DNA from: Deltaproteobacteria bacterium
GTDB lineage: Bacteria; JAGRBM01; JAHCIT01
Assembly (NCBI GenBank): GCA_026129095.1
Contig: JAHCIT010000007.1
Location: 1-64,000 of the forward strand
Length of the DNA: 64,000 nt
Direction: 5' to 3'
Position numbers and translations under genes: made by a program. This document shows, one piece after another, positions 2,086-18,384 of this stretch. Each line of letters begins with the position of its first letter. The stretch's first letter is position 1. Under the pieces are notes generated by a model. That model made no database searches and was not told the origin of the DNA. It saw only the letters and a program-made list of their open reading frames with translations.

Positions 2086-2349
2086 TATCAATCGGTTAAG
2101 GGCTAATCAGTGGTACCACCACCCACCACCGACGGAAGCGGCCAGATCCCAAGAAGCTTGGAACCCCTTGAAGCTGCAAGCCTTTCGGCGATCCTGGTTT
2201 TAGAGACTTCGGGGGAAAGCAATTTTACCGGCCAAAAGCCCCGACCTCAGCAACACCTGATACCCACCGTGCCCAAACCCAAGCCCCCACCCTCCAACCA
2301 TTTATTTCTATTGGGGAAAAACTGAAAAGTGGGGGTTAGGTGGGGGCTT
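2086..2349. mobile_element. Possible attachment-site/island-boundary remnant
   Basis: IHF-consensus match TATCAATCGGTTA (2086-2098); TGGTACCACCACCC (2111-2124) reads as a tRNA-like 3' end ..GGTGGTACCA on the minus strand; 11-bp inverted repeat AAGCCCCCACC (2281-2291)/GGTGGGGGCTT (2339-2349); no integrase present. Confidence 0.35.
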
Positions 2350-2616
2350 TGTGAGTTTTACATCCCTTGGACCCCGGAGTTCTATCGAAGCCGGAAGCCC
2401 CCGGACACAATTGTGCCCTTTTCAGGGACACTGATGTGCAAAGGGTCTGACGCTTGAGCGGCAGCTAACTTATGGAAATTACAAATCAGGCCGCTTCGTC
2501 AGCTGTCACAAGAAACTCTTTGATGAGTGCATCGGTTTCGTTGATTTCACCCTGATGATCCAGATACAGGGTTCGAAGGTCGTCACCGACGGCCCGCCAA
2601 AATTTCAGTATCGAAA

Positions 2617-3705: not shown

Positions 3706-3714
3706 GCCTGACTC

Positions 3715-4809
3715 CTAGTTTCCGATCCGGTCCGCTACCTGGCGGTAGGCCAGATCGGCGAGCAACCGGACCGCCGGGCCGAACATGGCCGCCCGCGACG
3801 AACTGGCGTTGCCGTCCAGATGCCGCCTGACGATGCCCTGGATGATCGCCGCCCCGCGAAACATTCCGAAGGCCATGAAATACCTGTAGTCAGGGATCGC
3901 CTCGAGCCCCATCTCCCAGGCGTAGAGACCAATGTATTCGGCCTCGGTCGGGATGCCGAGTTCGGCAAACTTCACGCCCATCAGCCCCGACTGGCCGCCC
4001 ATCTTGCCGGCCATCGGGTTGTTCGGCACGTAGTAGAGCATGGTGTTTGCCGTGAGATCGACCAGCGGATGCCCCAGCGTGGAGAGTTCCCAGTCGAGCA
4101 CGGCGACGATCTTCGGTTCCACCGGGTGGAACACCACGTTATCGAGCCGGTAGTCGCCGTGCATGATCGTGGTCCAGTCGTCCTTGGGGAGGTGATCCGG
4201 GAACCACGCCATGAGCCTGTCCATCGATTCGATGTCGTGGGTCTTTGTGCGGGTGTACTGGTCCTTCCAGAGCGCCACCTGACGGCCCATGTAGTTGGCC
4301 GGCTTGCCGTAGTCGGCCAGCCCCGCCGCGTTCCAGTCGATCCGGTGGAGCCTCGCCAGAACCCGGACCATGTCGGAATACATCTCCCGGCGCTCCTCCG
4401 GTGCCGCAACCTCCGGCATCGCGGGGTTCCGGAATATCCGTCCCTGTACCGCTTCCATGACGAAGAACGGGGTTCCGATGACGGAATTGTCCTCACAGAG
4501 GGCAAAGGTTCTGGGAACCGGCACGCCGCTCGACTGGAGCGCCGTGATGATCCGGTATTCCCGCTCGACGGCATGGGCCGATTTTTCCAGCTTGCCTGGC
4601 GGCTTCTTGCGGATGACGTAGTTCCGTCCAGGCGTCAGGGCGGCGAAGGTGGGGTTCGACTGGCCGCCTTCGAACTGCTGCACTTTCAGCGGACCGTGGT
4701 AGCCATCGACGTGGGCGGCCATGTACCGGTCCAGCGAGTCCGCATCGAATCTCTGCGACTCCCGCACATCGACCAGTTCTCCGGGCAAGCGTCCCGCCGG
4801 TTCTGTCAT
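3715..4809 (-). CDS. Phosphotransferase family protein (ACAD10/11 N-terminal, LvaA-like kinase)
   Basis: GGQSNPT, SAHAVEREY, HGDYRLDN, VLDWELSTLGHP. Confidence 0.92.
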   Translation of the reverse strand: MTEPAGRLPGELVDVRESQRFDADSLDRYMAAHVDGYHGPLKVQQFEGGQSNPTFAALTPGRNYVIRKKPPGKLEKSAHAVEREYRIITALQSSGVPVPRTFALCEDNSVIGTPFFVMEAVQGRIFRNPAMPEVAAPEERREMYSDMVRVLARLHRIDWNAAGLADYGKPANYMGRQVALWKDQYTRTKTHDIESMDRLMAWFPDHLPKDDWTTIMHGDYRLDNVVFHPVEPKIVAVLDWELSTLGHPLVDLTANTMLYYVPNNPMAGKMGGQSGLMGVKFAELGIPTEAEYIGLYAWEMGLEAIPDYRYFMAFGMFRGAAIIQGIVRRHLDGNASSSRAAMFGPAVRLLADLAYRQVADRIGN

Positions 4810-4844
4810 AAGGTGCCGTCCTCCGTCGCCGGGGAACCTATCAT

Positions 4845-4866
4845 ATTGACTGACATGTCAGTCAAT
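4845..4866. promoter_or_regulatory. Perfect 22-bp palindrome, probable repressor operator
   Basis: ATTGACTGACATGTCAGTCAAT, about 35 bp upstream of the kinase start. Confidence 0.7.
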
Positions 4867-5071
4867 CACGGAGCCAGGAATACGAGGAAAATCAGGCTAG
4901 GGGAAAAGGGCTGAAAATGGGCCCGTTACCAATTTTACTGCGGGGAACTCGGTTCCCGTGTTCGCAGAGGCCGTCTACCATTGATTTCCCCGCCGCAATG
5001 CAGATACACGGAGTCCACAATAATCAGGCCTGCTTGTCCGCAACCGGACGAAAACCACGGGGAATCACGGC

Positions 5072-6100
5072 ATGACCGCACCTCTCGATCCTTCTCACAT
5101 ACTCCAGACCGGATTCGGATTCTGGCCCGCCCGGACGCTCTTGAGCGCCGTGGAACTGGAACTGTTCACGAAGCTGGGCGATGAGGCCCTGACGGCTCCG
5201 GAACTGGGCAAACGGCTGGGGCTTCACCCCAGGGGGTTCCACGATTTCTTCGATAGCCTCGTCGCCCTCGGCCTGCTGTCGCGGGATGGCGACGGGGAAA
5301 GCAGCCGCTATAAAAACACGCCCCAAACGGCGCATTTCCTCGACAAGAAGAAGGCCGAAAACTACGTCGGCGGAATCCTGGAAATGGCCGGGGCCCGTTT
5401 GTACCGATTCTGGGGCGATCTCACCGAGGCGCTCCGGACCGGCAAGCCCCAGAACGAGATCAAGCACACGGGCGCACCGATGTTCGAGGAACTGTACCGG
5501 TCGCCGGAACGGCTCGAACAGTTCATGTCCGCCATGGCGGGAATCTCCCGCGGGAACTTTCAGGCGCTCATGGAGAAGTTCGATTTCTCCCCCTACAAGA
5601 CCCTCTGCGACGTGGGCGGAGCCACCGGCCTCCTGTCCATCCTGGCCGCCAGACACCACCCGCATCTTGAGTGCCTCAGCTTCGACCTGCCGGTCGTTCA
5701 GCCCATCGCCACCCGGCATATCGAAAAGGCCGGAGTCGCCGGGCGCGTGAAAGCCGTAGCGGGGGATTTCTTCAAGGAAGGTCTCCCGAAAACTGACGTG
5801 ATCACGATGGGGATGATCCTGCATGACTGGAATCTCGAGGGTAAAATGCGGCTGATCCGGCTCGCCCATGACGCCCTGCCCGAAGGCGGTGCCTTCATCG
5901 CCATCGAAAACCTCATCGACGATGCCCGCCGTGAAAACGCATTCGGCCTGGGCATGTCGCTCAACATGCTGATCGAGTTTGGCGACGCCTTCGACTACAC
6001 CGGCGCCGATTTCTCCCGCTGGTGCAGGGAGGCCGGATTCCGCCGGACCGAAGTCCTGCACCTGAACGGTCCCTGCAGCGCGGCCATCGCCTACAAGTAG
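5072..6100 (+). CDS. O-methyltransferase (dimerisation + methyltransferase_2 domains)
   Basis: LCDVGGATG, AGDFF, ILHDW. Confidence 0.92.
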   Translation: MTAPLDPSHILQTGFGFWPARTLLSAVELELFTKLGDEALTAPELGKRLGLHPRGFHDFFDSLVALGLLSRDGDGESSRYKNTPQTAHFLDKKKAENYVGGILEMAGARLYRFWGDLTEALRTGKPQNEIKHTGAPMFEELYRSPERLEQFMSAMAGISRGNFQALMEKFDFSPYKTLCDVGGATGLLSILAARHHPHLECLSFDLPVVQPIATRHIEKAGVAGRVKAVAGDFFKEGLPKTDVITMGMILHDWNLEGKMRLIRLAHDALPEGGAFIAIENLIDDARRENAFGLGMSLNMLIEFGDAFDYTGADFSRWCREAGFRRTEVLHLNGPCSAAIAYK

Positions 6101-6143
6101 AAGGTTGCCACGGGGCCTGCCCCAAGGTACGACCCTGTTCCTG

Positions 6144-6452
6144 ATGACAGGCCAGCCACCTCCCGATACCCGCTCCTACTGGCGCGAGCATTTGAGACTG
6201 ATCGCCCTGCTGCTGGCGGTCTGGTTCACCGTGTCGTTCGGATTCGGCATCCTGCTGGCCGACTGGCTCGACCAGTTCCGCTTCTTCGGCTTCAGGCTCG
6301 GATTCTGGTTCGCCCAGCAGGGATCAATCTACCTGTTCGTCGGCCTGATCGCCTTCTATGCCGTACGGATGAACCGCCTGGACCGGAAGCACGGCGTGGA
6401 CAGGTTCGAAACGCCCGCCACACGGCCCCCTGACGGAGGCCCCGCCCACTGA
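6144..6452 (+). CDS. DUF4212 small membrane subunit of sodium:solute symporter
   Basis: YWREHLRL..GFWFAQQGSI; stop overlaps the symporter start; start codon approximate. Confidence 0.88.
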   Translation: MTGQPPPDTRSYWREHLRLIALLLAVWFTVSFGFGILLADWLDQFRFFGFRLGFWFAQQGSIYLFVGLIAFYAVRMNRLDRKHGVDRFETPATRPPDGGPAH

Positions 6453-8203
6453 TGAGCGTCCAGACGTGGACATACATCATCGTGGGCCTGTCGTTCGCCC
6501 TCTACATCGGCATCGCCATCTGGTCGAAAGTCGCCTCGACCCGCGAGTTCTACGTTGCCGGCCGTGGCGTCCATCCCGTCACCAACGGACTTGCCACCGC
6601 CGCCGACTGGATGTCGGCGGCATCGTTCATCTCGATGGCGGGCCTGATCGCCTTCGATGGCCGGGACGGCTCCAGGTATCTCATGGGGTGGACAGGTGGC
6701 TACGTGTTACTTGCCCTTCTGCTCGCCCCGTATCTTAGGAAATTCGGCAAGTTCACGGTGCCCGACTTCGTGGGCGACCGGTATTACTCCACTACCGCAA
6801 GGCTCGTGGCCGTGGTCTGCGTGCTGTTCGTCTCCTTCACCTATATCGCCGGCCAGATGCGCGGAGTGGGGATCGTCTTTTCCCGGTTCCTGAACGTCAG
6901 CATCGACAATGGCGTCATTGTCGGAATGATCATCGTTTTTTCCTACGCCGTGCTGGGCGGAATGAAGGGGATCACCTACACGCAGGTCGCGCAGTATTGC
7001 GTGCTGATCTTCGCGTTCATGGTCCCGGCCGTTTTCATTTCGCTACTACTGACGGGCCACCCGGTACCGCAGACCGGCTTTGGCGGGAGGCTGCTTGGGA
7101 GCGGGGAGTATCTCCTCGACCGGCTGGACGGCCTCACCACCGAACTGGGCTTTGGCGAATATACTGCCGGCAGGAAATCCACCATCGACGTCCTGTGCAT
7201 TACCGCCGCCCTGATGGTGGGGACCGCGGGCCTGCCTCATGTCATCATCCGGTTCTTCACGGTGCCGAGCGCCAGGGATGCCCGTGTCTCGGCCGGATGG
7301 ACACTGCTGTTCATCGCCATCCTCTATACCACGGCTCCGGCTGTGGCGGCTTTTGCCCGCGTGAACCTGATCGAGTCGGTCAGCAACACCGCCTACACGG
7401 AAACCCCGGACTGGTTCCGCCGCTGGGAGACGACCGGGCTGGTCGCCTGGATGGACAAGGACGCCGATGGCCGCATCGCCTATGTCGCCGGTGACCCGTT
7501 TGCCGGGAAACCGGTATTCACCGGTGAAACCGGCAGAAACGGAGAGCGGTTGCTGTCCAACACGGCCAGTCCGGGCCGCAACGAACTTTATATAGATCCT
7601 GACATCATGGTGCTGGCAAATCCCGAAATTGCCCACCTGCCGGCATGGGTCATCGCGCTGGTGGCGGCCGGCGGTCTTGCCGCCGCACTCTCGACGGCGG
7701 CAGGGCTTCTGCTCGTCATCTCGACGGCGATCTCCCACGACCTGCTGAAGAAGGCGCTCCTGCCCGAGATCACCGACGAGCGCGAACTGCTGTTCGCCCG
7801 TGTGGCGGCCGGTGCGGCAGTACTCGCCGCCGCCTGGTTCGGCATTCACCCCCCGGGCTTCGTGGCCCAGGTGGTTGCCTTCGCCTTCGGTCTGGCGGCG
7901 GCGACTTTTTTCCCGGTGCTGGTTCTGGGGGTTTTTTCGAAACGGGTGAACCGCGAGGGCGCCATCGCCGGCATGGTAATGGGCCTCGTATTCACCTTCG
8001 GCTATATCGTGAAGTTCAAGTTCGTGAGCCCGGAGCTGAACACCCCCGCCCACTGGTGGCTTGGCATTTCACCGGAAGGAATAGGCACCGTCGGCATGCT
8101 CATCAATACGGCAGTCATGATCGCCGTCAGCGCCCTGACGCCGCCGCCACCGGACGATGTTCAGAAGATGATCGAGGAAATCCGGCTGCCCGGAGAGCGT
8201 TAG
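6452..8203 (+). CDS. Sodium:solute symporter (ActP-like)
   Basis: ADWMSAASF, MVGTAGLPHVIIRFFTV, ALSTAAGLLL; many TM helices. Confidence 0.93.
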   Translation: MSVQTWTYIIVGLSFALYIGIAIWSKVASTREFYVAGRGVHPVTNGLATAADWMSAASFISMAGLIAFDGRDGSRYLMGWTGGYVLLALLLAPYLRKFGKFTVPDFVGDRYYSTTARLVAVVCVLFVSFTYIAGQMRGVGIVFSRFLNVSIDNGVIVGMIIVFSYAVLGGMKGITYTQVAQYCVLIFAFMVPAVFISLLLTGHPVPQTGFGGRLLGSGEYLLDRLDGLTTELGFGEYTAGRKSTIDVLCITAALMVGTAGLPHVIIRFFTVPSARDARVSAGWTLLFIAILYTTAPAVAAFARVNLIESVSNTAYTETPDWFRRWETTGLVAWMDKDADGRIAYVAGDPFAGKPVFTGETGRNGERLLSNTASPGRNELYIDPDIMVLANPEIAHLPAWVIALVAAGGLAAALSTAAGLLLVISTAISHDLLKKALLPEITDERELLFARVAAGAAVLAAAWFGIHPPGFVAQVVAFAFGLAAATFFPVLVLGVFSKRVNREGAIAGMVMGLVFTFGYIVKFKFVSPELNTPAHWWLGISPEGIGTVGMLINTAVMIAVSALTPPPPDDVQKMIEEIRLPGER

Positions 8204-8880
8204 GACTCCTGCCCCCGCTTCCACGTCCCGTATATCCAGTCGAACACCGGATAGGTAATGTTGAAATTCCACCGGTGCATGAGTGTGGGATCATGGTGAC
8301 GCGTGTGCATCTGGCGGAGCGTATTCATGAACGGAAGTTTTCTCAGCCATGAATCTTCCGGCAGATGATAGGCGAGGTGTAGCCACTCGTAGTTGAGGTA
8401 GTAAGCCGTGATAGTGAAGAGCAGCAACCAGCCGGCGTTCGAGGAAACAGTGAAGCCCGCCGCCAGCGCCAGTGGCACGCCGAAAACGACGATCACGACC
8501 ACAAGAAACCACCAGGGGAACAGGACCATGTGGTAGTCCTGCGTCGATTCGGCCGCCATCGCATCATGCCGGTAGAAATGATGGTGCCTGACTGTATGGC
8601 GCAGGAAACCCGCCTCAAGGCACTTCGTCTTGTGGTGCATGGGACCGCGATGAAAATGGTACTCGCCATAGTTTCCGATCAGGAATCCGGCCGGGACGAT
8701 CATCCATTCCCACCACCGGACATTTTCGAGCCGCGAGAGGCATAGGGCCATTGTCCCGAGCCCAATCGAATTGCTGATGATGAGATGCCGGATGCCCGAG
8801 TAGTTTTTCGGCAATACCTCGCGCCGGTATTCCTCGCGGAACCGGGCGACAGCTTCCGGGATGGCGGATAAACGCTCCAC
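8200..8880 (-). CDS. Fatty acid hydroxylase/sterol desaturase family membrane enzyme
   Basis: His boxes HFHRGPMHH, HTVRHHH, EWLH, HTRHH; NFNIT..FDWIYGT. Confidence 0.88.
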   Translation of the reverse strand: MERLSAIPEAVARFREEYRREVLPKNYSGIRHLIISNSIGLGTMALCLSRLENVRWWEWMIVPAGFLIGNYGEYHFHRGPMHHKTKCLEAGFLRHTVRHHHFYRHDAMAAESTQDYHMVLFPWWFLVVVIVVFGVPLALAAGFTVSSNAGWLLLFTITAYYLNYEWLHLAYHLPEDSWLRKLPFMNTLRQMHTRHHDPTLMHRWNFNITYPVFDWIYGTWKRGQES

Positions 8881-8943
8881 GGCTAGTATTCTATCAGCGC
8901 CCGCCGTCCCACTGGAAGCGGGAAAAGTGAACCGGTTTCAGGC

Positions 8944-9825
8944 TCAGCCCACCAGTATTTTCGTCACGACGTCCATCGCCTTCTGGAATTCGGCCGGCGG
9001 AGTATGGGAGTTGAGGCGTATCTCCAGTACGGCGCCCATGACGGCGATGAGCCGCACGGCGATCCAGCGTTTCCGCTCGGCATCGGAGAGTTCCTCCTCC
9101 GGTGCAGGCCGGCCCTGAAGCCGCTCGCGCTCGGCCAGCACCGGGGCCAGCATTTCCGTCACCTCGGACCGGAACTGTTCGTACAGAGGCGACAGTGGAC
9201 CGGATGGCCTCAACGCCTCACTCACCACGACAAGCGCCATCCGGTCGATCACGGCCATGCCGCCCACGAGGATCCGCGCAAACCGCTGGAGCTTTTCGTC
9301 CGGTGAGCCCTCGCGCTCCAGGTCGCGGCGCATCAGTTCGAACACCACGGTCAGGAACAGCTCGCTGTGTGCGGCCAGCACCTCGTTCTTGTTCCGGAAG
9401 AACTGGTAGAAAGTGCGTGGGGATACGTCCCCCGCCTTCAGGATGTCTTCTATCCGGGCGTTTTCGAACCCTTTGGCCACGAACACCCTCGCCGCCCCGC
9501 GCAGGCTCCGCGCATAGCCAGATGAACTCCCCACTCCCTCCGAGAGGCGCAGCAGAAGGTCGAGCACGTCCGTGGCGTCCGCTTCACCCTGTCCGGTGCC
9601 CTCCCGCAGCCGGGGCTGGAGTGCCATGAATTTGAAGATTGCTTCCGGCCCCAGCGGCAGCAGACTGCCGAACGCGACAAGTGCCTGGTGCTTGAGTTCC
9701 TCAAGGTGCCGGGCACCCTCGCCCGCCCTGGGGCGCCCTGCAGCCCCGCCTTTTGCATCACGGTCACGCACCAGTTTTTCGCCGCGACGGGCAATATCGA
9801 GCAGGGGTTTGGGAAGACGGGCCAT
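8944..9825 (-). CDS. TetR/AcrR family regulator with about 100-aa N-terminal extension
   Basis: Internal HTH AARVFVAKGFENARIEDILKAGDVSPRTFYQFFRNK. Confidence 0.85.
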   Translation of the reverse strand: MARLPKPLLDIARRGEKLVRDRDAKGGAAGRPRAGEGARHLEELKHQALVAFGSLLPLGPEAIFKFMALQPRLREGTGQGEADATDVLDLLLRLSEGVGSSSGYARSLRGAARVFVAKGFENARIEDILKAGDVSPRTFYQFFRNKNEVLAAHSELFLTVVFELMRRDLEREGSPDEKLQRFARILVGGMAVIDRMALVVVSEALRPSGPLSPLYEQFRSEVTEMLAPVLAERERLQGRPAPEEELSDAERKRWIAVRLIAVMGAVLEIRLNSHTPPAEFQKAMDVVTKILVG

Positions 9826-9931
9826 CGACCATACTTATAAGCCGATTTTACCTTCAGTTCCAGCCAGAAGGCATGTATAAAGTTAGATAACTAGCTGTAA
9901 ATAAAAGGACTAATTCCGTCATACGAATTAT

Positions 9932-9983
9932 TTGTCTATAAAGACAATATTGTCTTGACGCAAATTGGCATATTGGTAAAAAT
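9932..9983 (+). promoter_or_regulatory. Operator palindrome overlapping a sigma70-like promoter
   Basis: Perfect 16-bp palindrome AAGACAATATTGTCTT (9941-9956), a third half-site TTGTCT (9932-9937), overlapping -35 TTGACG (9955-9960), AT-rich -10 region near 9977-9983. Confidence 0.7.
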
Positions 9984-10055
9984 AGTTTTTACCTTAGGGT
10001 GCAGGAACTCCGCCGATTGCAGAGTCGTGACGCCCCGCTGGGAGGAGAAAGACCA

Positions 10056-10631
10056 ATGACCCCGAAACAACTGCTCGATGAAGTGATCCCGAAGAAGATC
10101 GCCGAACTGGCCGGCATCGAGGTGCCAAACCTGGACGCCGAGATGCAGGTAACGATTGAAGGCGATAGCGGCGGCACCTGGACGCTGAGCGCCAAGGGCG
10201 GAAAACCGCAGGTAAAGTCAGGTGCGCCCGCCCAGCCGATCGTCGTCGTCAAGACCAACCGCCAGGCCTTCGACCTGGGATTCCAGCGCGGTGGCCAGCA
10301 GGCCCTCGAAATGGACATCACCGGACCGGTGCAGATGGCCCTGAAGCTGCTGCCGGACGGCGACAAGATCAACATGATCCGCGAGCAGATGTCGGGCACC
10401 CTTCTTTTCAAGGTGACGACAACCGGCGGGGAAGCCCTCATCGGCCTCGGTTTCAACGGCGATGCCGATCTCGCCAACCCCCGCTGCTCCATCGAGACGT
10501 CGGAAGCCGAACTGCTTGAGATGCGCGATGCGAGGATGCCGCCACAGCAGGCGTTCATGGCCGGCAAGATCCGCCTGTCGGGCGACCTGTCCCTGGCAAT
10601 GACGGCCGGCATGCTGCTCGCCCCCATGTGA
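10056..10631 (+). CDS. SCP2 sterol/lipid-binding protein (probably two SCP2-like domains)
   Basis: GGAGGAG RBS; EGDSGGTWTL; PQQAFMAGKIRLSGDLSLAM. Confidence 0.85.
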   Translation: MTPKQLLDEVIPKKIAELAGIEVPNLDAEMQVTIEGDSGGTWTLSAKGGKPQVKSGAPAQPIVVVKTNRQAFDLGFQRGGQQALEMDITGPVQMALKLLPDGDKINMIREQMSGTLLFKVTTTGGEALIGLGFNGDADLANPRCSIETSEAELLEMRDARMPPQQAFMAGKIRLSGDLSLAMTAGMLLAPM

Positions 10632-10686
10632 CCTGGCCATCCCGTTTTCAGTCCCCGAGAGACACACGCTCCTTGGAGGAAGCCAT

Positions 10687-11568
10687 ATGAATACCCAGAC
10701 CATGCAGTCCCGCTCCCGTCCCAAACCCCCGCCATTCGCCGGCAGCCCGGTCCGTCAGGCCAGCCCCCTTCCTGACGGCGTAGACATCACGGTTCGCCAC
10801 CCGCGGTTCGATCTTGCCAGGGACCGCAAGCACTGGATGGACGGCGACCCGCTCATGAGCCGTGTCGTGGACGCGCTTTCCATGTTCTTTCCCGACGGCG
10901 AGAAGTTTTTCATCGACTCGGTTGTCCGGTTTCGCAATGAAATCACCGACCCGGAGCTGAAAAAGCAGATTTCCGCCTTCGCCGGACAGGAAGCCGCTCA
11001 CACAGCGGAACACCGCAAATACAACGTCCATGCCGCCGGGAACTTCGCGCCGAAGGCGGAATACGTAGCCGCGTTCCTGCTCGGTATTGCCCGCCGGTTC
11101 GGTTCGCGCAGACGCCAACTGGCTGTAACCGTCGCGCTCGAACACCTGACGGCTACGCTGGCAGACATTATCCTGAACGATCCGGAAACCGCTGCCCGGA
11201 TGGACGCCGAGCATCGGAAACTACTGCTCTGGCATGCCGCCGAGGAAACCGAGCACAAGTCGGTAGCATTCGATGTCTACAATGCCACTGGCGGCGGGTT
11301 CCTGCGCCGCACAGTGCTCATGATCGGGGCAACCGGATTTCTGGTTGCAGCCACCACCGGCGTCGCCGCCGTGCTCCTATGGCGGGATGGCGAACTGCTC
11401 AGGCTCCGCAATTTCAGCAGCCTTTATAACCTGTTTTTCGGTTCGCCAGGACTCATTCGCAAGGGAGCGAGAGAATATCTCCGCTACTTCCGCCGGGACT
11501 TCGAGCCATGGGGCCACGACAACTCGGCCCTGCTCGCCGCCTGGAAAAACCAGTACGCAAAAGCCTGA
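10687..11568 (+). CDS. Predicted metal-dependent hydrolase family (ferritin-like, ExxH), copy 1
   Basis: FPDGEKFFIDSV, QEAAHTAEH, ALEHLTA, WHAAEETEHKSVAFD. Confidence 0.9.
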   Translation: MNTQTMQSRSRPKPPPFAGSPVRQASPLPDGVDITVRHPRFDLARDRKHWMDGDPLMSRVVDALSMFFPDGEKFFIDSVVRFRNEITDPELKKQISAFAGQEAAHTAEHRKYNVHAAGNFAPKAEYVAAFLLGIARRFGSRRRQLAVTVALEHLTATLADIILNDPETAARMDAEHRKLLLWHAAEETEHKSVAFDVYNATGGGFLRRTVLMIGATGFLVAATTGVAAVLLWRDGELLRLRNFSSLYNLFFGSPGLIRKGAREYLRYFRRDFEPWGHDNSALLAAWKNQYAKA

Positions 11569-11597
11569 AATCCGGCAAAATCACCGGGGAGACCACC

Positions 11598-12449
11598 ATG
11601 ACTACAACTGCTGCCGCCACCATGCCCGCAAAACAGGCCACCCCGCTTCCGGAAGGCGTGGACATCAAGGTCCGCCACCTCAAGTTCCAGTTCCCCGAGA
11701 AGCGGTACTGGCTGGACAACGATCCGTTCGCCACACGGTTCATCGAATCCCTGTCGATGTTCTTTCCCGACGGCGAGACCTTCTTCGTCAAGTCGGTTCT
11801 CCACTACCGGGACCGGATTACCGACCCGGAGCTGAAGAAGCAGGTGGCCGCGTTCGCCGGGCAGGAACACATCCACTCGACCGAACACCAGAAGTACAAT
11901 GCCCGCGCTGCCGGCAGGCACCAGAAGCAGTACGAAAAGGTCGCCGGTTTCCTGCTGAACGGCCCGCACTCCCGGTTGGCCTCTCCACTGGACAAGCTGG
12001 CCGTCACGACCGCATTGGAGCATTTCACTGCGATCCTCGCCGATGAGTTCCTCAAGAACCCCGCCTATTCCAGCAAGATGGAACCCGCCCATGCCAAACT
12101 GTGGCTCTGGCATGCAGCCGAGGAAACCGAGCACAAGGCCGTCGCTTTCGATGTCTACAAGGCCGTCGGCGGCGGCTATTTCCGCCGGGCTTTCTTCATG
12201 CTGGCCGCGACGATGTTTATCCTGCTCGCCGCGATCGGCGTGACCTCGGTAATGCTCTGGCGCGACCGGATGCTGTTCCGCCTCAAGACCTTCACCAGCT
12301 TCCTCATGTGGGGCTTCATCCGGCCGGGGCTGTTTGTCCGGGTGCTGGGCAACTGGTTCGACTACTTCAAACCCGGTTTCCATCCCTGGCAGCACAACAA
12401 CGCCCACTTGCTCGCCGACTGGAAAAAGCAATACGCTGAAGCGGCGTAA
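11598..12449 (+). CDS. Predicted metal-dependent hydrolase family (ferritin-like, ExxH), copy 2
   Basis: FPDGETFFVKSV, QEHIHSTEH, ALEHFTA, WHAAEETEHKAVAFD, PGFHPW. Confidence 0.9.
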   Translation: MTTTAAATMPAKQATPLPEGVDIKVRHLKFQFPEKRYWLDNDPFATRFIESLSMFFPDGETFFVKSVLHYRDRITDPELKKQVAAFAGQEHIHSTEHQKYNARAAGRHQKQYEKVAGFLLNGPHSRLASPLDKLAVTTALEHFTAILADEFLKNPAYSSKMEPAHAKLWLWHAAEETEHKAVAFDVYKAVGGGYFRRAFFMLAATMFILLAAIGVTSVMLWRDRMLFRLKTFTSFLMWGFIRPGLFVRVLGNWFDYFKPGFHPWQHNNAHLLADWKKQYAEAA

Positions 12450-12548
12450 GTCGCAGGATTCCGGCCCGTCCCACAGTGGAAACGCCCGCTCCTTACGCTC
12501 CTTGCGGGGACTCCAGCAAACGGGAGCCCCGACTGAAAGGGCCCGTCC

Positions 12549-13619
12549 ATGAAGTTCTCCCTCTTTTTTGAAATGCAGATGTCGGACCCCACCCCGGAGT
12601 CGGAGGCACGGTGCTTCCACGACTGCGCCGACCAGGCAATTCTGGCCGACCAGATCGGGTACCATGGCATATGGGAAGTGGAGCACCACGGCCTGCGCGA
12701 ATACTCCCATTCGTCGGCACCTGAAGTATTTCTCGCCTACGTCGCCGCCAAAACCAAGAACATTCGGCTGGGGCACGGCATCACGCTCACGCCCAAGTGC
12801 TACAACCATCCGATGCGGATCGCCGAGCGGGTGGCGACGCTGGATATCCTTTCAAACGGCCGGGCCAACTGGGGGTCGGGCAAGAGCAACTCGCTAACCG
12901 AACAGAAGGCATTCGAAGGCGACATTCCCAGGCTCCACGACCAGTGGAAGGAAGCCCTCCAGATCATTCCGCGCATGTGGCAGGAGGAAGTGTTCGAGTT
13001 CAGGGGCGAATTCTGGAACATCCCGCCGACACAGGTAGTGCCGAAGCCGGTCCAGAAACCCCACCCGCCCCTGTTCGCCGCCTGTTCAAAACCGGATTCG
13101 GCCGTCGAGGTCGGCAGGCAGGGAATTGGCGCGCTCAATTTTGCCGTCGGTAACGATGAATACCTGACAAAAAAGGTGAAGGAGTACCGCAAGGCGGTGG
13201 AGGGTTCCAGCCCAAAGCACTATCAGAAAAACAACTGGTTCGCCTGCACGCCAGTGGCGCACTGCCAGGACAACGACCGCACCGCCTGCGAAATCGGGAT
13301 GCGCGGAGCGAGATTCTTCGCGCAGTCGCTCGGCATCTACTACACGCCGCTGAACCGGCCCATCGGAAGGCTTGCCGTTCAGAGAGGTGAGATACCTCCC
13401 GACGAACTCACCGAGGCGATGGAAGCGCGGCTCATGCCGGATGCCCCGGCCATGAACGTCGTGGGCGATCCCAGCCACTGCAAGGAGATCGTCTCCCGGT
13501 TCCGAGACGCGGGCATCGATGAGCTCATTCTCGTCATGCAGGCTGGGACAGTGCCTCACGAGGAAATCATGCGGTCTATCAAGACCTTCGGCGAAAAGGT
13601 CATGCCGCACTTCGCATGA
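12549..13619 (+). CDS. LLM-class (luciferase-like) flavin-dependent oxidoreductase
   Basis: WEVEHH, HPMRIAERVATLDILSNGR, VVPKPVQKPHPP. Confidence 0.93.
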   Translation: MKFSLFFEMQMSDPTPESEARCFHDCADQAILADQIGYHGIWEVEHHGLREYSHSSAPEVFLAYVAAKTKNIRLGHGITLTPKCYNHPMRIAERVATLDILSNGRANWGSGKSNSLTEQKAFEGDIPRLHDQWKEALQIIPRMWQEEVFEFRGEFWNIPPTQVVPKPVQKPHPPLFAACSKPDSAVEVGRQGIGALNFAVGNDEYLTKKVKEYRKAVEGSSPKHYQKNNWFACTPVAHCQDNDRTACEIGMRGARFFAQSLGIYYTPLNRPIGRLAVQRGEIPPDELTEAMEARLMPDAPAMNVVGDPSHCKEIVSRFRDAGIDELILVMQAGTVPHEEIMRSIKTFGEKVMPHFA

Positions 13620-13644
13620 CGGCAGGGCCCGGGAGCAAGAAATC

Positions 13645-15057
13645 ATGGCGGCAGCCGTACCGTTGAAAATCGCGATTACCGGAGCATCCGGAAGCCTCGG
13701 CGAGGCCATTCTCGACATTCTTCTTCCCGATGACGAAATCGGCGAAATCGTGGCGATCGACCTGGCCCCGCCCCGGCGGAATGCAAGCGCGGCGAAACTC
13801 CACCATGTCCGGATGGACGTGCGCGACGCGAAACTGGCGGAAACGTTCAAGGGCCTTGATGCCGTCATCCACCTGGCGTTCATCGTGGAGAAAACCGGCG
13901 GCAAGCCACCGGAAGAGGTGGAGTCGATCAACGTCGGCGGGACACAGAACGTGTTTCGCTGCGCTGCCAGCGCCGGGGTCCCTCATGTGGTGTACGCCTC
14001 GTCGGTAGCCTCATACGGCATTCATCCCCACAACCGGGGCAAGCTGCTCACCGAGGACACTCCCCGCGTAGCCAGCGAGAACTTCTACTACTCCCGGCAC
14101 AAGACGGCCGTGGAACTGTGGCTCGACGGGTTCGAGAAAGAGCACCCGGAGATAGCCATCTGCCGCCTGCGTCCGTCGATCTTTCTCAGCGAACGGTCCC
14201 ATACGCGCAAGGTCCAAACCCTGTTTGCCGCCCCCGTCCAGATCAAGATGACTGGCGTCGATGTGCGGATGCAGCTGACGCATGAAGACGACGTGGCACA
14301 GGCGTTTGTGCTGGCGCTGAAGAAGAAGGCGAAAGGTGCCTACAACGTCGCCGCCGAGGGGACAGTGCCGCTCGGTGATCTTGGTTCGGAACTGGGCCGC
14401 CCGTCGGTTCCCGTTCCGGGCAACCCGCTGAGACTCGCCAAGGTGGCGGCCAAGTCAGGCTATGCCCCCATGGATCCGGTCTGGTTCGACGTGATGGAAG
14501 ACGGCGAAGTTACGGTGTCCGGCGCGAAAATCCACAAGGAACTCCGCTGGCAACCGCGGTTTGAGACTTCCGGGGATGTGCTCCGGCAGGTCGCCGGCCG
14601 GCCGAATGCGAAAGCCTCCCATGCCCTCAAGTGGTACTGGGGTTCCATGGCCCGCCTCTCGTCCGCCGTTCGCAGGATTCCCATGCCAGCCGACATCGCG
14701 GGGCAGGCGCGGGGCTTCGAGGGCGACATCAACCTGGTATTCACTGGCGACCAGCCGGGTGCCTACCGGATCCACATCGGGACCGGCAGCTTTTCCATTC
14801 ATGAGGGAACGGTCCCGGATGCACGGGCGACAATTCTCATGAAGACGGAAACCTTCCACGACCTGCTGCTGGGGAAGTTCAACAGCCAGTCGGCCATGTT
14901 TACCGGAAAGATCCGTGTCCGGGGCGAGGGAGAAACCGTGCTGATCGCCATGGGCTCGATTGACACCTTCCGGCGGCTCCAGAGACTGAAAAGTCCGCTC
15001 GGCGCGGGCGCACGGATATACGGAAAATTCCTGCTCCGCGAACTGCCGGCATCCTAG
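13645..15057 (+). CDS. Extended SDR/NAD-dependent epimerase fused to a C-terminal SCP2 domain
   Basis: ITGASGSLG, YASS, YSRHK; C-terminal AMFTGKIRVRGE. Confidence 0.88.
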   Translation: MAAAVPLKIAITGASGSLGEAILDILLPDDEIGEIVAIDLAPPRRNASAAKLHHVRMDVRDAKLAETFKGLDAVIHLAFIVEKTGGKPPEEVESINVGGTQNVFRCAASAGVPHVVYASSVASYGIHPHNRGKLLTEDTPRVASENFYYSRHKTAVELWLDGFEKEHPEIAICRLRPSIFLSERSHTRKVQTLFAAPVQIKMTGVDVRMQLTHEDDVAQAFVLALKKKAKGAYNVAAEGTVPLGDLGSELGRPSVPVPGNPLRLAKVAAKSGYAPMDPVWFDVMEDGEVTVSGAKIHKELRWQPRFETSGDVLRQVAGRPNAKASHALKWYWGSMARLSSAVRRIPMPADIAGQARGFEGDINLVFTGDQPGAYRIHIGTGSFSIHEGTVPDARATILMKTETFHDLLLGKFNSQSAMFTGKIRVRGEGETVLIAMGSIDTFRRLQRLKSPLGAGARIYGKFLLRELPAS

Positions 15058-15893
15058 GGCCCAATTCGCGCTTCCAACAGCCGGTAGGGGCAATACTGGA
15101 GTGGCGGGTGTCTGCCGGTCGTGTTCAGCGACGCCAGTTCCAGAACCTCCACAGAGTCAAAGCCACAGGAGACGGCAAACCGGCGCGCTTCGTCAATCGT
15201 CTCGAACAGCCGGTCGTCGAACCTGGCGCCCACCAGAAGTCCCAGCGCGGATGTGAAGAACCTCGCCATCTGGCGATATGCCCCGTAGAGCTCCCTCGCG
15301 TGAACCTCGAACAGGTAGCGGCCGCCGCCGTGCGCCCTGAACAGGCTGGCGATGTTGCCCATCGCCTTCCGCTTTTCGTCCATGCTGAGGTAGTCAGTAA
15401 CCCCTTCGGTGATCGCGGCAATCTTCTGGCCAGCCCTGAAAACCGGCGGAAGCGTATCGAGAAACCGGCTTCCCAGCAGGTCTACGGTCCCCAGATGATA
15501 GTTCGGCGGCAACTCAACACCAGCCAGCGCACGCCGCTTGGCCGCCACCATGTGGGGCAGATCCCCTTCGATATAGATCAACCCGGGGTTCCGGCGGGTG
15601 AAGGAGAGGCCCCGTGGAGAGAGTCCGGCGCCGATCTCCACCACGACATCCGGCTGGAGTTGCCGAAGCCGCTCCTCGTATGCCGCGTGACGGATCCAGA
15701 GGTAGTCCAGATGATGCTGGACATGCGGCCCAAGTGCTCCCGCCATCGGTGTCAGCCGTTTTACCGCATTGAACATCACCCGGCCCTGGAATGTGTCGAA
15801 GTAGCCTGCATGCTCAAAGCCTGCCTGCACCCATGCCTGTGCAGTAAAATGGGCCGTCGGCGCGATGCGTGGATTTCCCTTGGGCTCCGCCAT
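15054..15893 (-). CDS. Class I SAM methyltransferase (leucine carboxyl methyltransferase-like)
   Basis: IAPTAHFTA, VVEIGAGLSPRG, EGDLP, TEGVTDYL; start chosen at MAEPKG. Confidence 0.85.
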   Translation of the reverse strand: MAEPKGNPRIAPTAHFTAQAWVQAGFEHAGYFDTFQGRVMFNAVKRLTPMAGALGPHVQHHLDYLWIRHAAYEERLRQLQPDVVVEIGAGLSPRGLSFTRRNPGLIYIEGDLPHMVAAKRRALAGVELPPNYHLGTVDLLGSRFLDTLPPVFRAGQKIAAITEGVTDYLSMDEKRKAMGNIASLFRAHGGGRYLFEVHARELYGAYRQMARFFTSALGLLVGARFDDRLFETIDEARRFAVSCGFDSVEVLELASLNTTGRHPPLQYCPYRLLEARIGP

Positions 15894-15990
15894 ACAGGGA
15901 GTATGCACGCCGGCAAAAGCGGCTCCAAGCGCGGCGTTCGCCAATTTCACGGGAGCAGTCGCCTCTGGCCAGTTTCCGGAGTTAGAGTAA

Positions 15991-18384
15991 ATGCCATCGA
16001 TGGCTGGCACCGCTTCCCCCACCCCTCCGGTCACTGCCGGCGAACGGCTAATCCTGCTCCTTGCCGGGTTTGCAGCCATCAACTGGATGGCGTTCGGCCG
16101 CATCTACCTCGGCGAAGACGCCCTGTATTTCCGGGACGCCCTCATCAACCACATTCCGTACAAATCATGGTTCCTTCAGCGGATACTGGCTGGCGAACTG
16201 CCGCTCTGGAGCGAGAACATCCGCAGCGGCATACCCTATCTCGCCGATCCGGTTCAGGGATTTTTCTATCCGGGGCAGATCCCGCTGCTGTTTTCCGGCG
16301 GACTGCACCCGGTTCACGCCTACGGAATTCTCGCGGGCTTCCAGTTTCTCATCGCCCACGCAGGGTATCATCACCTCACCCGGACCCTCGGCGCGGGCCA
16401 TTTCAGCGCTTTCACCGGCTCGGCGCTGCTTGCGTACGGACCGATTGCCCTTGAGCTCACCTCGGTAATCCAGTTCCTGTCGATGTTCGCGATCACCGGC
16501 TGGCTGTGTGCCGCCCTTGTGCGGCTGCTCCGGAATCCGGGGCGGCTGGCAACTATCAGGCTGGCCCTGTGGACCGCCATCGCCGTCACGACCGGCGACC
16601 TGCAGGGGGTTTACCTGTTTGGACTGGTCACCATTACCGCCGCCCGCCCCTGGCGGCGGGCCCAGTGGCGAACTATCGCCAGTGTTTCGGCCGCTCTGGC
16701 AGCCGGCATCTTCCTTTCCGCCTGTGCGATCCTTCCCGGCCTTGAACTGTCGGCCCACTCCTACCGGCGTTTTGAAAACACCGAAGACCTTGCCCTTCGC
16801 TGGTCATGGAATCCACGTCGCGTGATCGAGTGGGCTGCTCCCGGGCTGTTCGATCCTCCGGCCGAGATACCGGTTCCGTTTGGCAAGCTGGAAACCGGCC
16901 CCGGAAGCGGCCACCAGAAATACTGGTTCCCAAGGGGAAGCCCCGGCCTCCTGTTTACAGCACTGATCCCGCTCGCCCTCGCCGCTCTCCGGAGGCGAAA
17001 GGAAATTCTGCCACTTACAGGAATGACCCTGCTTTTTCTCATCGCTGCCGCGGGAACCCACACGGGGCTTTATCAACTGCTTCGTACGATACTTCCTGGA
17101 TGGGACCAGTTCCGCTTCCCCGAGCGGCTTCTTCTCCCGGCTTTCATCTCGCTTGCCGTTGCAGGAATCCTCGCGCTCGACCAGTTGATTGAGCGGCAGA
17201 AATCGGATGAACCGGATGGCGGCTGGATACCCCCGCAATGGGTTCTCGCCGGGCCGCTCTTGCTGACGGCCGCCGCCCTGTGGGGAGCGGTCAACACCCG
17301 CGGTGCTCTGGCGATGGTTACAGGCATCAATGCCAACGGCGTCTGGGCTGGCTGGGCCTCGGACTGTTTCCGGCTGGCCCTTGCTCCCGTCGTATTGTGC
17401 CTGGCCGGGCTCACCCTCTGGCGGAACGTAAGGTGGGCGCGGGGGCTCCTGGCCGGAGCCGTGGCGGTTGAACTGCTCGTCATCTCGCTCCCCGGCCTTA
17501 AAACCGTCCCGCTGTCCACTTTCCGCGCCGAACCGGAACTGGTCCGTGCCATCCGTGAAATCCATGCCGCTGGCGCAACTCCCAGCCTCGCGCCCCAGAT
17601 CCATGTCCAGCTTCCACCTCCGCCCGGCAATGGGGCATTCGAGGAAAACACGGCCCGTCACCAGTGGGAAACTCTTGCGCACAACATCGCCCTCGCCTTC
17701 GGCCTGAACAACCCGGAGGGCTACAACTCCTCCGCCCCCGCCGACCGGGAGATGGCAAACCGTCAGGTGCCCGCCCCGGTGATGGCCAGAATCCTCGCCC
17801 TTGATTTCGCTGTGCTCCCGCAGGCGGTTTCGCCGGGAAGCGGCTGGACCTGCGGGACTCTCCTTGCCCGTCTCGATGCCCATATCTGCCGCCCCAATGC
17901 CCCGCCGGGAGCCGTCCGAGCTCCGCCCCGCTGGGTATTCGAATCAGACCCGGACAAGCTCCGCGAGCGGATGCAGGAGCCCGGATGGAACCCTGCCTCG
18001 CTGGAGTTCATCGGCCGTTTTTCCGGGCCATGGAAAGACGCGCCGCCTGTTCCTTCGGGAGAAAGTGGCGAAACGGCTATCCGGGTCATTTCCTGGACAC
18101 CCGAACGGCGGGTGATCGAAGTCGAACGGGAAAAGGAAGGCCCCACTGTCTTCCGCGACAACTTCTTCCCCGGCTGGAAAGCATTTACCGGGGGGCGGGA
18201 AATATCCGTCATCCCGGCCAACGGATTCCAGATCGCTGTCTGGACGCCAGCCGGAAAAAACACCATCGAACTCGTGTACCAGCCCCGAAGTGTTGCCGCC
18301 GGCGCTGTCGTAAGTATCGTCACCGCCCTTGGACTTCTGGTCTGGGCAGCCGCCGGGCATCGGCGGAAGGAAATCACCGCCTGA
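15991..18384 (+). CDS. YfhO-family polytopic membrane protein (GT-C-like)
   Basis: GELPLWS..GIPYLADP..FFYP, QFRFPER, NFFPGWKA, IELVYQP. Confidence 0.8.
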   Translation: MPSMAGTASPTPPVTAGERLILLLAGFAAINWMAFGRIYLGEDALYFRDALINHIPYKSWFLQRILAGELPLWSENIRSGIPYLADPVQGFFYPGQIPLLFSGGLHPVHAYGILAGFQFLIAHAGYHHLTRTLGAGHFSAFTGSALLAYGPIALELTSVIQFLSMFAITGWLCAALVRLLRNPGRLATIRLALWTAIAVTTGDLQGVYLFGLVTITAARPWRRAQWRTIASVSAALAAGIFLSACAILPGLELSAHSYRRFENTEDLALRWSWNPRRVIEWAAPGLFDPPAEIPVPFGKLETGPGSGHQKYWFPRGSPGLLFTALIPLALAALRRRKEILPLTGMTLLFLIAAAGTHTGLYQLLRTILPGWDQFRFPERLLLPAFISLAVAGILALDQLIERQKSDEPDGGWIPPQWVLAGPLLLTAAALWGAVNTRGALAMVTGINANGVWAGWASDCFRLALAPVVLCLAGLTLWRNVRWARGLLAGAVAVELLVISLPGLKTVPLSTFRAEPELVRAIREIHAAGATPSLAPQIHVQLPPPPGNGAFEENTARHQWETLAHNIALAFGLNNPEGYNSSAPADREMANRQVPAPVMARILALDFAVLPQAVSPGSGWTCGTLLARLDAHICRPNAPPGAVRAPPRWVFESDPDKLRERMQEPGWNPASLEFIGRFSGPWKDAPPVPSGESGETAIRVISWTPERRVIEVEREKEGPTVFRDNFFPGWKAFTGGREISVIPANGFQIAVWTPAGKNTIELVYQPRSVAAGAVVSIVTALGLLVWAAAGHRRKEITA

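Follow-up and report, generated by a model that had tools for sequence, protein, structure and literature searches.

The first 64 kb of contig C21 from a Deltaproteobacteria bacterium (NCBI GenBank assembly GCA_026129095.1, contig JAHCIT010000007.1, positions 1 to 64,000; this whole stretch is called the window here) carry a series of five co-oriented genes, divergent from a TetR-family regulator, that encode a stand-alone SCP2-domain protein, two paralogs of the PF10118 "metal-dependent hydrolase" family (MH1 and MH2), a luciferase-like monooxygenase/oxidoreductase (LLM), and a short-chain dehydrogenase/reductase (SDR) fused to a second SCP2 domain. Tentatively, and with a little less than even confidence, we read these genes as a TetR-repressed, inducible operon in which SCP2 would carry an aliphatic, long-chain substrate and the enzymes would oxidize it by oxygenation at a di-iron site, dehydrogenation by the SDR, and a further oxygenation by the flavoenzyme; most likely this substrate is an alkane or a comparable hydrocarbon or lipid chain, and we infer both substrate and chemistry. 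A bolder proposal, which we rate as rather unlikely, is that the large PF10118 family as a whole carries the wrong name and that its members are di-iron oxygenases associated with membranes, a further, so far unrecognized class for alkanes and long aliphatic chains beside AlkB, CYP153, LadA, and AlmA, which in this lineage forms a module complete in itself together with SCP2 carriers, a flavin monooxygenase, and an SDR–SCP2 fusion. The genome comprises 3.67 Mb in 23 contigs and is 96.65% complete (G000 below); G+C content is 56–65% over 4–20 kb of the window. The genes and sites of the cluster are as follows.

8200..8880, minus strand: His-box membrane protein, downstream of TetR; related to FA_hydroxylase/sterol desaturase by ESM Atlas clusters
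8944..9825, minus strand: TetR-family regulator, 293 aa; Pfam TetR_N E 1.8e-9, residues 108–152
9955..9983, plus strand: sigma-70-like promoter, TTGACG–17 nt–AAAAAT; consensus scan, 9 of 12 matches
9976..9992, no strand: 17-bp palindrome over the −10 hexamer, candidate TetR operator; pattern GTAWAWA-N(1-5)-TWTWTAC
10056..10631, plus strand: stand-alone SCP2-domain protein, 191 aa; Pfam SCP2 E 5.3e-15, residues 114–188
10687..11568, plus strand: MH1, PF10118 paralog, 293 aa, putative membrane-associated di-iron oxygenase; Pfam E 4.3e-76
11598..12449, plus strand: MH2, PF10118 paralog, 283 aa, putative membrane-associated di-iron oxygenase; Pfam E 1.4e-79
12549..13619, plus strand: LLM, 356 aa; Pfam Bac_luciferase E 9.8e-45
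13645..15057, plus strand: SDR–SCP2, an extended SDR (3beta-HSD/epimerase type) with a C-terminal SCP2 domain, 470 aa; Pfam Epimerase, 3Beta_HSD, and SCP2
15054..15893, minus strand: convergent LCM-family S-adenosylmethionine-dependent methyltransferase; Pfam LCM, 32.3 bits against a cut-off of 22.3

Pfam matches above the gathering score confirm the gene list and layout of the initial annotation, including its SCP2 domains in two genes (PF02036; 55.5 bits for the stand-alone protein and 27.2 bits for the fusion, cut-off 21.3). The five plus-strand genes are separated by 55, 29, 99, and 25 nt, and the stop codons of the SDR–SCP2 and methyltransferase genes lie in a 4-nt convergent overlap. Some starts were set inside longer open reading frames (ORFs). 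The SCP2 gene is taken to begin at the ATG at 10056, a start kept in three genomes (long ORF 9999–10631(+), SCP2 E 7.7e-15); MH2 at 11598, from the 283-aa database form P0001 (11508–12449(+), PF10118 E 1.8e-79); SDR–SCP2 at 13645, from the 470-aa form P0121 (13519–15057(+), Epimerase E 1.7e-26, 3Beta_HSD 3.3e-19, SCP2 5.1e-6); and the methyltransferase at 15893, the end coordinate of the initial annotation (15054–16103(−), LCM E 1.2e-7), where ortholog tblastn alignments start at long-ORF residues 63–73.

The cluster recurs elsewhere. Window proteins were compared by tblastn with fetched loci (cut-offs E 1e-5 to 1e-8); a phylum-restricted genome search had returned only six genomes (two families, four genera). 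The complete arrangement is present in G001 (L007), with TetR on the minus strand, then SCP2, MH1, MH2, LLM (91% identity), and SDR–SCP2 (75%), and the methyltransferase on the minus strand. G002 (L009, the same locus as L015) and the metagenome contig L099 each carry TetR(−), SCP2, MH1, LLM, and SDR–SCP2, with the MH1-type gene as the only PF10118 copy of the cluster. In a metagenome-assembled genome (MAG) labeled "uncultured delta proteobacterium" (L014), TetR(−) is followed by a single PF10118 gene (54%), LLM (76%), and SDR–SCP2 (58%), and the metagenome contig L100 has TetR(−), PF10118 (54%), and LLM (84%), inside which the contig ends. We refer to the window, L007, L009, and L099 as clade A and to L014 and L100 as clade B. 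Judged from these alignments, the conserved core is TetR/PF10118–LLM–SDR–SCP2, found in four other complete loci (L007, L009, L099, and L014) and the partial L100 with protein identities of 54–91%, and the stand-alone SCP2 protein (orthologs 73–75% identical in L007, L009, and L099; none at L014 or L100) and the second PF10118 copy were added in particular lineages only. LLM is the most conserved gene, with 90–91% identity in clade A and 76–84% in clade B. Three of the complete loci come from the small phylum of the window and the fourth from the L014 MAG, which matches none of the six genomes. The core co-clusters in two distant lineages, and the view of the initial annotation that the five genes and the divergent TetR form a unit holds up. 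Six further metagenome contigs probably carry both PF10118 (50–56%) and SDR–SCP2 (54–58%) genes, as judged solely by matches to the two proteins on contigs of equal length. In a quick maximum likelihood tree of 77 PF10118 proteins, the cluster-linked copies (MH1, MH2, L014, and the six further contigs) all belong to a single 52-row clade (SH-aLRT 98), set apart from a Marinobacter/Alcanivorax group; MH2 groups with clade-B copies such as that of L014, and MH1 groups with the G002 copy. The initial annotation did not recognize the combination as a described pathway, and our literature search likewise gave no paper describing SCP2, LLM, and a PF10118 "hydrolase" together.

The two PF10118 proteins, which match the family hidden Markov model with 256.3 and 267.4 bits (cut-off 33.2) and are 53% identical to each other, look like members of a ferritin-like, di-iron-type fold with invariant ligands, and on the structural model described here they would bind metal and act as oxygenases. 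Across 19 diverse family members, E60, Q89-E90-x-x-H93-x-x-x-H97, E141-H142, and H172-x-x-E175-E176-x-E178-H179 are invariant (residue numbers follow MH2). In a larger set of 152 sequences (150 representatives of 50%-identity clusters and both window proteins), E60, E90, H93, H97, E141, H142, H172, E175, E176, and H179 are kept in all 152 and E178 in 148; MH1 carries every invariant Glu and His ligand. The ExxH pairs that had been pointed out in both proteins are thus real. They belong to a ligand set, E ... ExxH ... E ... ExxH (E60, E90xxH93, E141, and E176xxH179), whose members lie on four long helices of an AlphaFold (AF2) model of MH2 (pLDDT 92.6, pTM 0.90). Within the half-sites, E60 and E90 are 30 residues apart and E141 and E176 are 35 residues apart, spacings that match the two ExxH-type half-sites of di-iron carboxylate proteins, and AurF and CmlI have the same HxxxExxH arrangement. 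A hydrophobic helix at about residues 198–220, with KD19 of at least 1.6 in 14 of the 19 sequences and 1.95 in MH1, suggests that the PF10118 proteins associate with membranes.

Structural comparison against 48,161 chains with VIA-align places the model nearest to CmlI (Z 12.9), RNR-R2 (12.4), AurF (11.8), MMOH (11.6), and R2lox (10.8), with aldehyde-deformylating oxygenases (ADO), desaturases (9.2–9.5), and COQ7 (9.1) lower, at Z 9–10; matches at Z 9–12.9 align over 190–240 residues, and Z below about 13 is common for helical models, in which helical-bundle likeness is weak evidence. This fold and the invariant ligands agree with the earlier suggestion that the "metal-dependent hydrolases" carry the pattern of ferritin-like di-iron enzymes. 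In a Foldseek search, a check also proposed then, RNR-R2, R2lox, and acyl-acyl carrier protein (ACP) desaturases are the top rows, with a few methane-monooxygenase rows lower (probability 0.66–1.0), but nothing in the "pdb" set reaches E ≤ 0.001 and all values are at least 0.06. The fold call therefore depends chiefly on VIA-align and the ligand pattern. Secondary Pfam matches of the PF10118 proteins are all below threshold and fall in the ferritin clan, with AurF (PF11583) reaching only 15.6 bits against 29.6 in a paralog from contig C19 and not appearing for the window proteins, COQ7 (PF03232) reaching 15.5 bits against 23.5 in MH1, and Rubrerythrin appearing in two of the four paralogs scanned. 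The PF10118 profile run against PDB sequences gave chance matches only (E ~0.6, response regulators). The range of the Z values, the Foldseek result, and the sub-threshold AurF and COQ7 scores weigh against assigning an oxygenase function, as does the literature that we searched, which reports neither a substrate nor activity or metal content for any member of PF10118. Literature searches gave no paper assigning a function to PF10118, COG3687, IPR016516, UCP07580, or PIRSF007580.

The closest known systems are like PF10118 in some respects and unlike it in others. AurF and CmlI align over ~230 residues, and AurF has the same layout of ligands on four helices (E, ExxH, E, and HxxxExxH). There is, however, no detectable sequence homology between these enzymes and PF10118, which has additional invariant residues (H97, H142, and E175) and a hydrophobic C-terminal helix, and whose genomic context is related to lipids and alkanes, whereas AurF and CmlI belong to arylamine natural product pathways. 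R2lox and the acyl-ACP desaturases share the ferritin-like di-metal fold and act on or bind long acyl chains, but they are different sequence families; the desaturases need ACP-bound substrates, and R2lox is not known to have operon partners of this kind. As for the hydrolase function by which PF10118 is annotated, the name is without support, and the fold and the invariant Glu/His pattern are those of di-metal carboxylate proteins. That the name is nevertheless correct and that the operon genes are neighbors by chance is very improbable. The database name speaks for it, together with the finding that, among 80 PF10118 genome loci (one genome per species; three metagenome loci and five plasmid regions were also covered), other cluster genes stand near PF10118 only in L013, L014, and L015 (E 1e-6), leaving 77 without them. 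Gene order and orientation kept in four other complete loci from two lineages, the short spacers, and the di-metal pattern argue against it.

PF10118 is a large family, with 4,683 clusters at 50% identity in a profile search at E ≤ 0.001 and 3,333 at E ≤ 1e-10. Four copies are present in the genome of the window and 11 matches in G001. The family is expanded in this phylum; the MH2 protein was matched in none of 35 genomes from other families.

Links to alkanes come from two transcriptomes. The P. aeruginosa record has a PF10118 gene divergent from oruR; with pta at PA0835, we take the gene beside oruR to be PA0830. The oruR gene is PA0831 (PMC8151288), and PA0830 is the second most induced gene of strain PAO1 after 1 h at a hexadecane–water interface, increasing 16.9-fold together with the flavin monooxygenase PA1538 (16.1-fold), the SDR PA3427 (15.6-fold), alkB2 (11.3-fold), the SDR PA3277, and the acyl-CoA dehydrogenase PA2550 (PMC5736630). 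This co-induced set mirrors the enzyme classes that are hard-wired in the window operon. In Acinetobacter venetianus RAG-1, expression of the adjacent ORFs 1533 and 1534 on dodecane exceeds that on dodecanol 143.5- and 28-fold; the authors label them "Metal-dependent hydrolase" and name A. baumannii, PAO1, and A. borkumensis as having homologs (PMC5074533). Both observations have a weaker side: the "metal-dependent hydrolase" label of the RAG-1 ORFs may stand for a family other than PF10118, and induction at the hexadecane interface could be a response to solvent or membrane stress, not catabolism. A Rhodococcus "metal-dependent hydrolase" beside prmABCD (PMC4428276) is probably of a different family and is not used here.

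The stress interpretation can be extended to the operon. PF10118 would then be a membrane-protective di-metal protein, peroxidase- or oxidase-like and induced by solvent stress, and the operon would detoxify oxidized lipids such as hydroperoxides and aldehydes. We regard this as unlikely. It is consistent with the Rubrerythrin matches noted above and with the induction of PA0830 when cells had been confined to the interface in saline for no more than 1 h, conditions that amount to stress (PMC5736630). The SDR and LLM could reduce or oxidize lipid aldehydes, and a DJ-1/PfpI gene follows PF10118 in Marinobacter mangrovi, as a ThiJ/PfpI gene is co-induced in RAG-1 (PMC5074533). On the other side, the RAG-1 response, if these ORFs are PF10118 members, is specific to dodecane over dodecanol in the same study, the best structural neighbors of PF10118 are substrate oxygenases, and a transposon-borne PF10118 gene has a P450 operon 0.65 kb away.

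The last case is on an Acinetobacter haemolyticus plasmid from crude-oil soil (NZ_CP139049.1; L102, 109832–124620), where a set of PF10118, TetR, BtrH_N, and two PaaI thioesterase genes stands at that distance from an operon of AraC, 2Fe-2S ferredoxin, P450, and FAD-reductase genes, both sets being enclosed between two copies of one Tn3-like transposase. Twelve further Acinetobacter plasmid rows show the same identity and E-value as L102, and the module may be widely mobile. More broadly, tblastn found PF10118 in 217 records of a plasmid collection, matches being common in replicons of Acinetobacter, Ralstonia, and Burkholderia and also in P. aeruginosa, and the named genome matches are mostly to Marinobacter, Alcanivorax, Alloalcanivorax, Ketobacter, Zavarzinia, and Moraxellaceae. 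PF10118 is divergent from an AraC-type regulator (Arabinose_bd and HTH_18) in 6 of 10 neighbor-scanned loci. The gammaproteobacterial AraC pairing is seen in L087, L027, L041, L044, L057, L016, and L104, and the AraC partner in P. aeruginosa is OruR, described as an activator of ornithine utilization; PA0830 may be an overlooked OruR target. A TetR gene is within ~2 kb of PF10118, though not adjacent to it, in Zavarzinia and in a Polyangiaceae MAG. In a Moraxellaceae MAG (L041), a gene for an MFE-2-like SDR–hydratase–SCP2 protein lies 2.3 kb upstream of PF10118, beyond thiolase and AraC genes. Among individual loci, a Ketobacter MAG (L062) has an MbnP gene paired with a di-haem MauG/CCP gene upstream of and divergent from PF10118 and a flavin monooxygenase-like gene 2 kb downstream, and the neighbors in one A. 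baumannii locus were uninformative. The fourth PF10118 paralog of the window genome (contig C12, 309000–326000; L006, 8080–9006) follows genes for a 725-aa RoxA-like cytochrome c (E 8.7e-21) and a 222-aa protein, with a TetR gene 5.7 kb upstream. RoxA is a rubber (polyisoprene) oxygenase, and the RoxA-like neighbor would be another link to hydrocarbons.

The regulator is itself conserved. A TetR homolog occupies the same divergent position in L007, L009, L014, L099, and L100. The protein of the window carries an extension of ~100 residues ahead of its helix-turn-helix; the ATG at 9825 lines up with the G001 start codon, the extension aligns with G001 and G002, and the ortholog ORFs are 284 and 300 aa. 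The spacer between the TetR and SCP2 genes is 230 nt and contains the promoter-like site, which can be aligned across G000, G001, and G002 at both its −35 and its −10 region. The palindrome over the −10 hexamer is present at the equivalent site in all four clade-A loci and in neither of the two clade-B loci, and its pattern occurs once in the 3.67-Mb genome, a uniqueness that is partly circular because the pattern was derived post hoc from the same sequences. We consider it a candidate operator, through which TetR would repress the operon. The divergent TetR at all core loci and the conserved promoter and palindrome fit an inducible role.

Cluster DNA is present in activated-sludge and soil metagenome runs, and two metatranscriptome libraries from different studies (X6 and X10) yield contigs with parts of each of the five operon genes. 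All 10 contigs in X10 and 8 of 13 in X6 are at least 99% identical to the window, the other five X6 contigs being 95–99% identical, and one X6 contig (10427–10787) spans the SCP2/MH1 junction. Outside the operon, no pieces from X6 or X10 are listed over 8000–9987 or 15100–16500 except a partial X6 piece at ~8852–9135; the runs were picked with the query 9800–15100, and therefore they are silent on expression of the TetR, His-box, and methyltransferase genes. A third RNA run (X11) is 95–99% identical and covers the flanks too, and may represent a related strain or DNA.

The partner proteins suggest how such an operon could work. On the reading we favor, the free SCP2 protein and the fused SCP2 domain would take up a water-insoluble substrate and hand it between enzymes; the two PF10118 proteins, as membrane-associated di-iron enzymes, would activate O2 and oxygenate the chain, by hydroxylation or in another way; the extended SDR, using NAD(P), would convert the resulting alcohol to a ketone or aldehyde; and the FMN-dependent LLM would insert a second oxygen, either in Baeyer–Villiger ester formation or in the conversion of an aldehyde to an acid. 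We infer metal binding, oxygenase activity, the substrate, and the order of steps. The LLM (PF00296, 153.7 bits against 27.9) reaches no NCBIfam subfamily cut-off, the best being TIGR03858 with 113 bits against 462. It is probably FMN-dependent rather than F420-dependent, because F420 biosynthesis genes were not found in the genome: there is no CofE (PF01996) match, and the best CofH score is 35.5 bits against 374, although such genes could have been missed in an assembly that is 96.65% complete. The genome encodes four LLMs; the best PDB relative of the one in the cluster, 7bip, is cited in a paper on the rishirilide polyketide pathway and has no bearing on the substrate here. The SDR–SCP2 protein scores 93.6 bits with Epimerase and 69.4 bits with 3Beta_HSD and has TGxxGxxG and YxxxK motifs in its translation, and its fusion architecture is common to many metagenomic proteins of 440–490 aa. 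Eukaryotic HSDL2 and multifunctional enzyme 2 are also dehydrogenases with a C-terminal SCP2 domain, but they contain a classical SDR in place of the extended epimerase/3beta-HSD type.

The logic of oxygenase, dehydrogenase, and flavin monooxygenase is shared with subterminal alkane oxidation, in which a hydroxylase, a secondary-alcohol dehydrogenase, a Baeyer–Villiger monooxygenase, and an esterase act, and LadA-type alkane monooxygenases are of the same LLM class as the enzyme in the operon, although the latter, as noted, matches no subfamily. The operon differs from these pathways in having no AlkB, P450, or esterase, so that the putative oxygenase would be a PF10118 protein; SCP2 carriers are not known to be part of described alkane-oxidation pathways. 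Pfam finds no AlkB- or P450-family gene among the cluster genes, and elsewhere the genome has five FA_desaturase/AlkB-family matches and one P450.

The same domains could instead point to a polycyclic lipid, a sterol or hopanoid, that the operon degrades. By analogy with sterol C4-demethylation, in which an oxygenase works with a decarboxylase of the 3beta-HSD type, SDR–SCP2 would oxidize a ring hydroxyl, and the di-iron and flavin enzymes would attack a side chain or methyl group. The 3Beta_HSD match above cut-off, weak NCBIfam matches to HpnA and SdmB, and the sterol-carrier fold of SCP2 fit this idea, which nevertheless seems quite improbable. SdmB reaches only 31.5 bits against 600 and HpnA 61.2 against 367.65. 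Unlike the SdmA/SdmB sterol C4-demethylase system, the cluster has no Rieske gene among the nine genes called at 8200–16103, nor were steroid-ring degradation genes found among the scanned genes of the window. The genome encodes a squalene cyclase of the hopene type, not the sterol type, and the sterol idea is weakened because this cyclase carries the hopene-type DCDDTA motif. The alkane data also fit better with an aliphatic substrate.

A different kind of explanation is that the membrane lipid on which the operon acts is the cell's own, for example a hopanoid, prenylquinone, or other isoprenoid lipid, which the di-iron enzymes, the flavoenzyme, and the SDR would make or tailor, with SCP2 in a role like that of UbiJ or COQ9. 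We assign this a real but minor probability. The squalene–hopene cyclase just mentioned is in its favor, and COQ7 is both a structural neighbor and a sub-threshold Pfam match. The operon resembles the COQ7–COQ9 pair and the UbiJ-containing Ubi metabolon in combining an interfacial di-iron hydroxylase with a lipid-presenting protein, and in ubiquinone biosynthesis the SCP2 domain of UbiJ carries a hydrophobic intermediate. Unlike the Ubi system, however, it has no prenyltransferase and no UbiE/UbiG-type genes, and the COQ7 Pfam score is below cut-off. Paralogous loci provide further likeness. PF10118 is followed by a 3beta-HSD-like SDR on G000 contig C19, on G001 contigs C22, C28, C29, and C30, and on G002 contig C65, and Coq4-like and ABC1-kinase genes adjoin PF10118 in such loci of the phylum, which hints at endogenous isoprenoid-lipid metabolism in place of the pathway that we propose. 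At C19 (positions 1–14000, L005), the PF10118–SDR pair stands with an Ald_deCOase-like ferritin protein, a 739-aa ABC1 kinase, and a Coq4 homolog, and also with a 295-aa protein that has weak Rubrerythrin and desaturase matches, a patatin lipase, a second ABC1 (UbiB-type) kinase, an MBL-fold protein, and an aldehyde dehydrogenase. G001 keeps the greater part of this set at 64–91% (L094 and L098), and the cluster looks like a lipid or quinone-type metabolic island.

Several findings run counter to an endogenous role. The operon is patchily distributed: order-level relatives G004 and G005 have no SDR–SCP2 ortholog (best 31–32% identity), G003 lacks LLM and SDR at its locus, and the same core occurs at 54–76% identity in a MAG outside the six genomes of the phylum search. 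Control by a dedicated divergent repressor is a more usual feature of inducible catabolic operons, and homologs respond to exogenous alkanes (PA0830 and, if they are of this family, the RAG-1 ORFs). Thus, the "lipid-modification cluster" of the initial annotation stands as to its core operon and its guess of di-iron enzymes, but, rather than modifying lipids, the operon more likely serves, on induction, to oxidize or break down a long-chain aliphatic compound from outside the cell, a reading favored by TetR control, patchy distribution, alkane-induced PF10118 homologs, and the P450-adjacent transposon copy.

The proposal of an aliphatic oxidation operon must itself be weighed against a number of observations. 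It has no reductase, ferredoxin, esterase, or acyl-CoA ligase, and because of this the proposed pathway is incomplete locally. The absence of flavin reductase and ferredoxin families, already stated in the initial annotation, was borne out by Pfam and NCBIfam among the nine genes called at 8200–16103; one FMN_red gene is present in the genome outside the cluster, and PF01613 has no match in the genome. The 77 of 80 PF10118 genome loci mentioned above have no LLM or SDR–SCP2 homolog at E 1e-6. In G003 (L008, the same locus as L013, on a 4.3-kb contig), MH1 and MH2 are followed directly by the methyltransferase, 59 nt after MH2, with LLM and SDR–SCP2 absent from the locus and no SDR–SCP2 ortholog found in the genome (83% complete); the enzymes are therefore separable, because this PF10118 pair abuts the methyltransferase without LLM or SDR between. 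A metagenome scan with LLM found only three loci, which therefore allow no broad co-occurrence statistic. The RNA-library contigs are compatible with expression and are no proof of a single transcript, and such libraries can include DNA.

The genes at the two ends of the cluster fared less well than its core. The His-box gene, which the initial annotation had counted in as a hydroxylase, is not a member of the conserved unit and has no homolog in any of six related loci (tblastn E 1e-5 to 1e-8). Its translation has three histidine boxes; it matches nothing in NCBIfam or in Pfam, the latter even at E 10, and in the ESM Atlas it falls with FA_hydroxylase/sterol-desaturase clusters (feature score 0.97, structure TM 0.95) whose members carry PF04116 in ~70% of cases. 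The methyltransferase is a convergent neighbor, as had been described, but it is variable and lies outside the core: of five informative loci, L007 and L008 have it adjacent, and L009, L014, and L099 lack it. Its recurrence in two of five would also suit a lipid-biosynthetic operon. Pfam LCM is above threshold for this protein, and TIGR00027 reaches 28.6 bits against 93.55.

Elsewhere in the window, 2617–4809(−) encodes a DUF7064/DUF7065 protein beside an APH-type phosphotransferase, and 5072–6100(+) a Methyltransf_2 O-methyltransferase, followed at 6105–8203(+) by DUF4212 and a VC_2705-type sodium/solute symporter as a pair. On the other side, 15991–18384(+) encodes a 797-aa multi-pass membrane protein with a faint YfhO match (E 0.0048) and no homolog beside the cluster in related loci.

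What is new here is an operon of oxygenase, dehydrogenase, and flavoenzyme built around an uncharacterized, predicted di-iron family and SCP2 carriers. PF10118 is annotated everywhere as a "metal-dependent hydrolase" and is common in hydrocarbon-degrading genera. The fold, the ten invariant Glu and His residues, and the two alkane-response transcriptomes, one of them conditional on the family of the RAG-1 ORFs, lead to a testable hypothesis that its members are di-iron enzymes that activate O2 in the metabolism of alkanes or lipids, for which the window operon offers a natural minimal set of partners. If this is true, the annotation of thousands of genes would change, and it could explain alkane-induced "hypothetical" genes that published studies have listed but not followed up.

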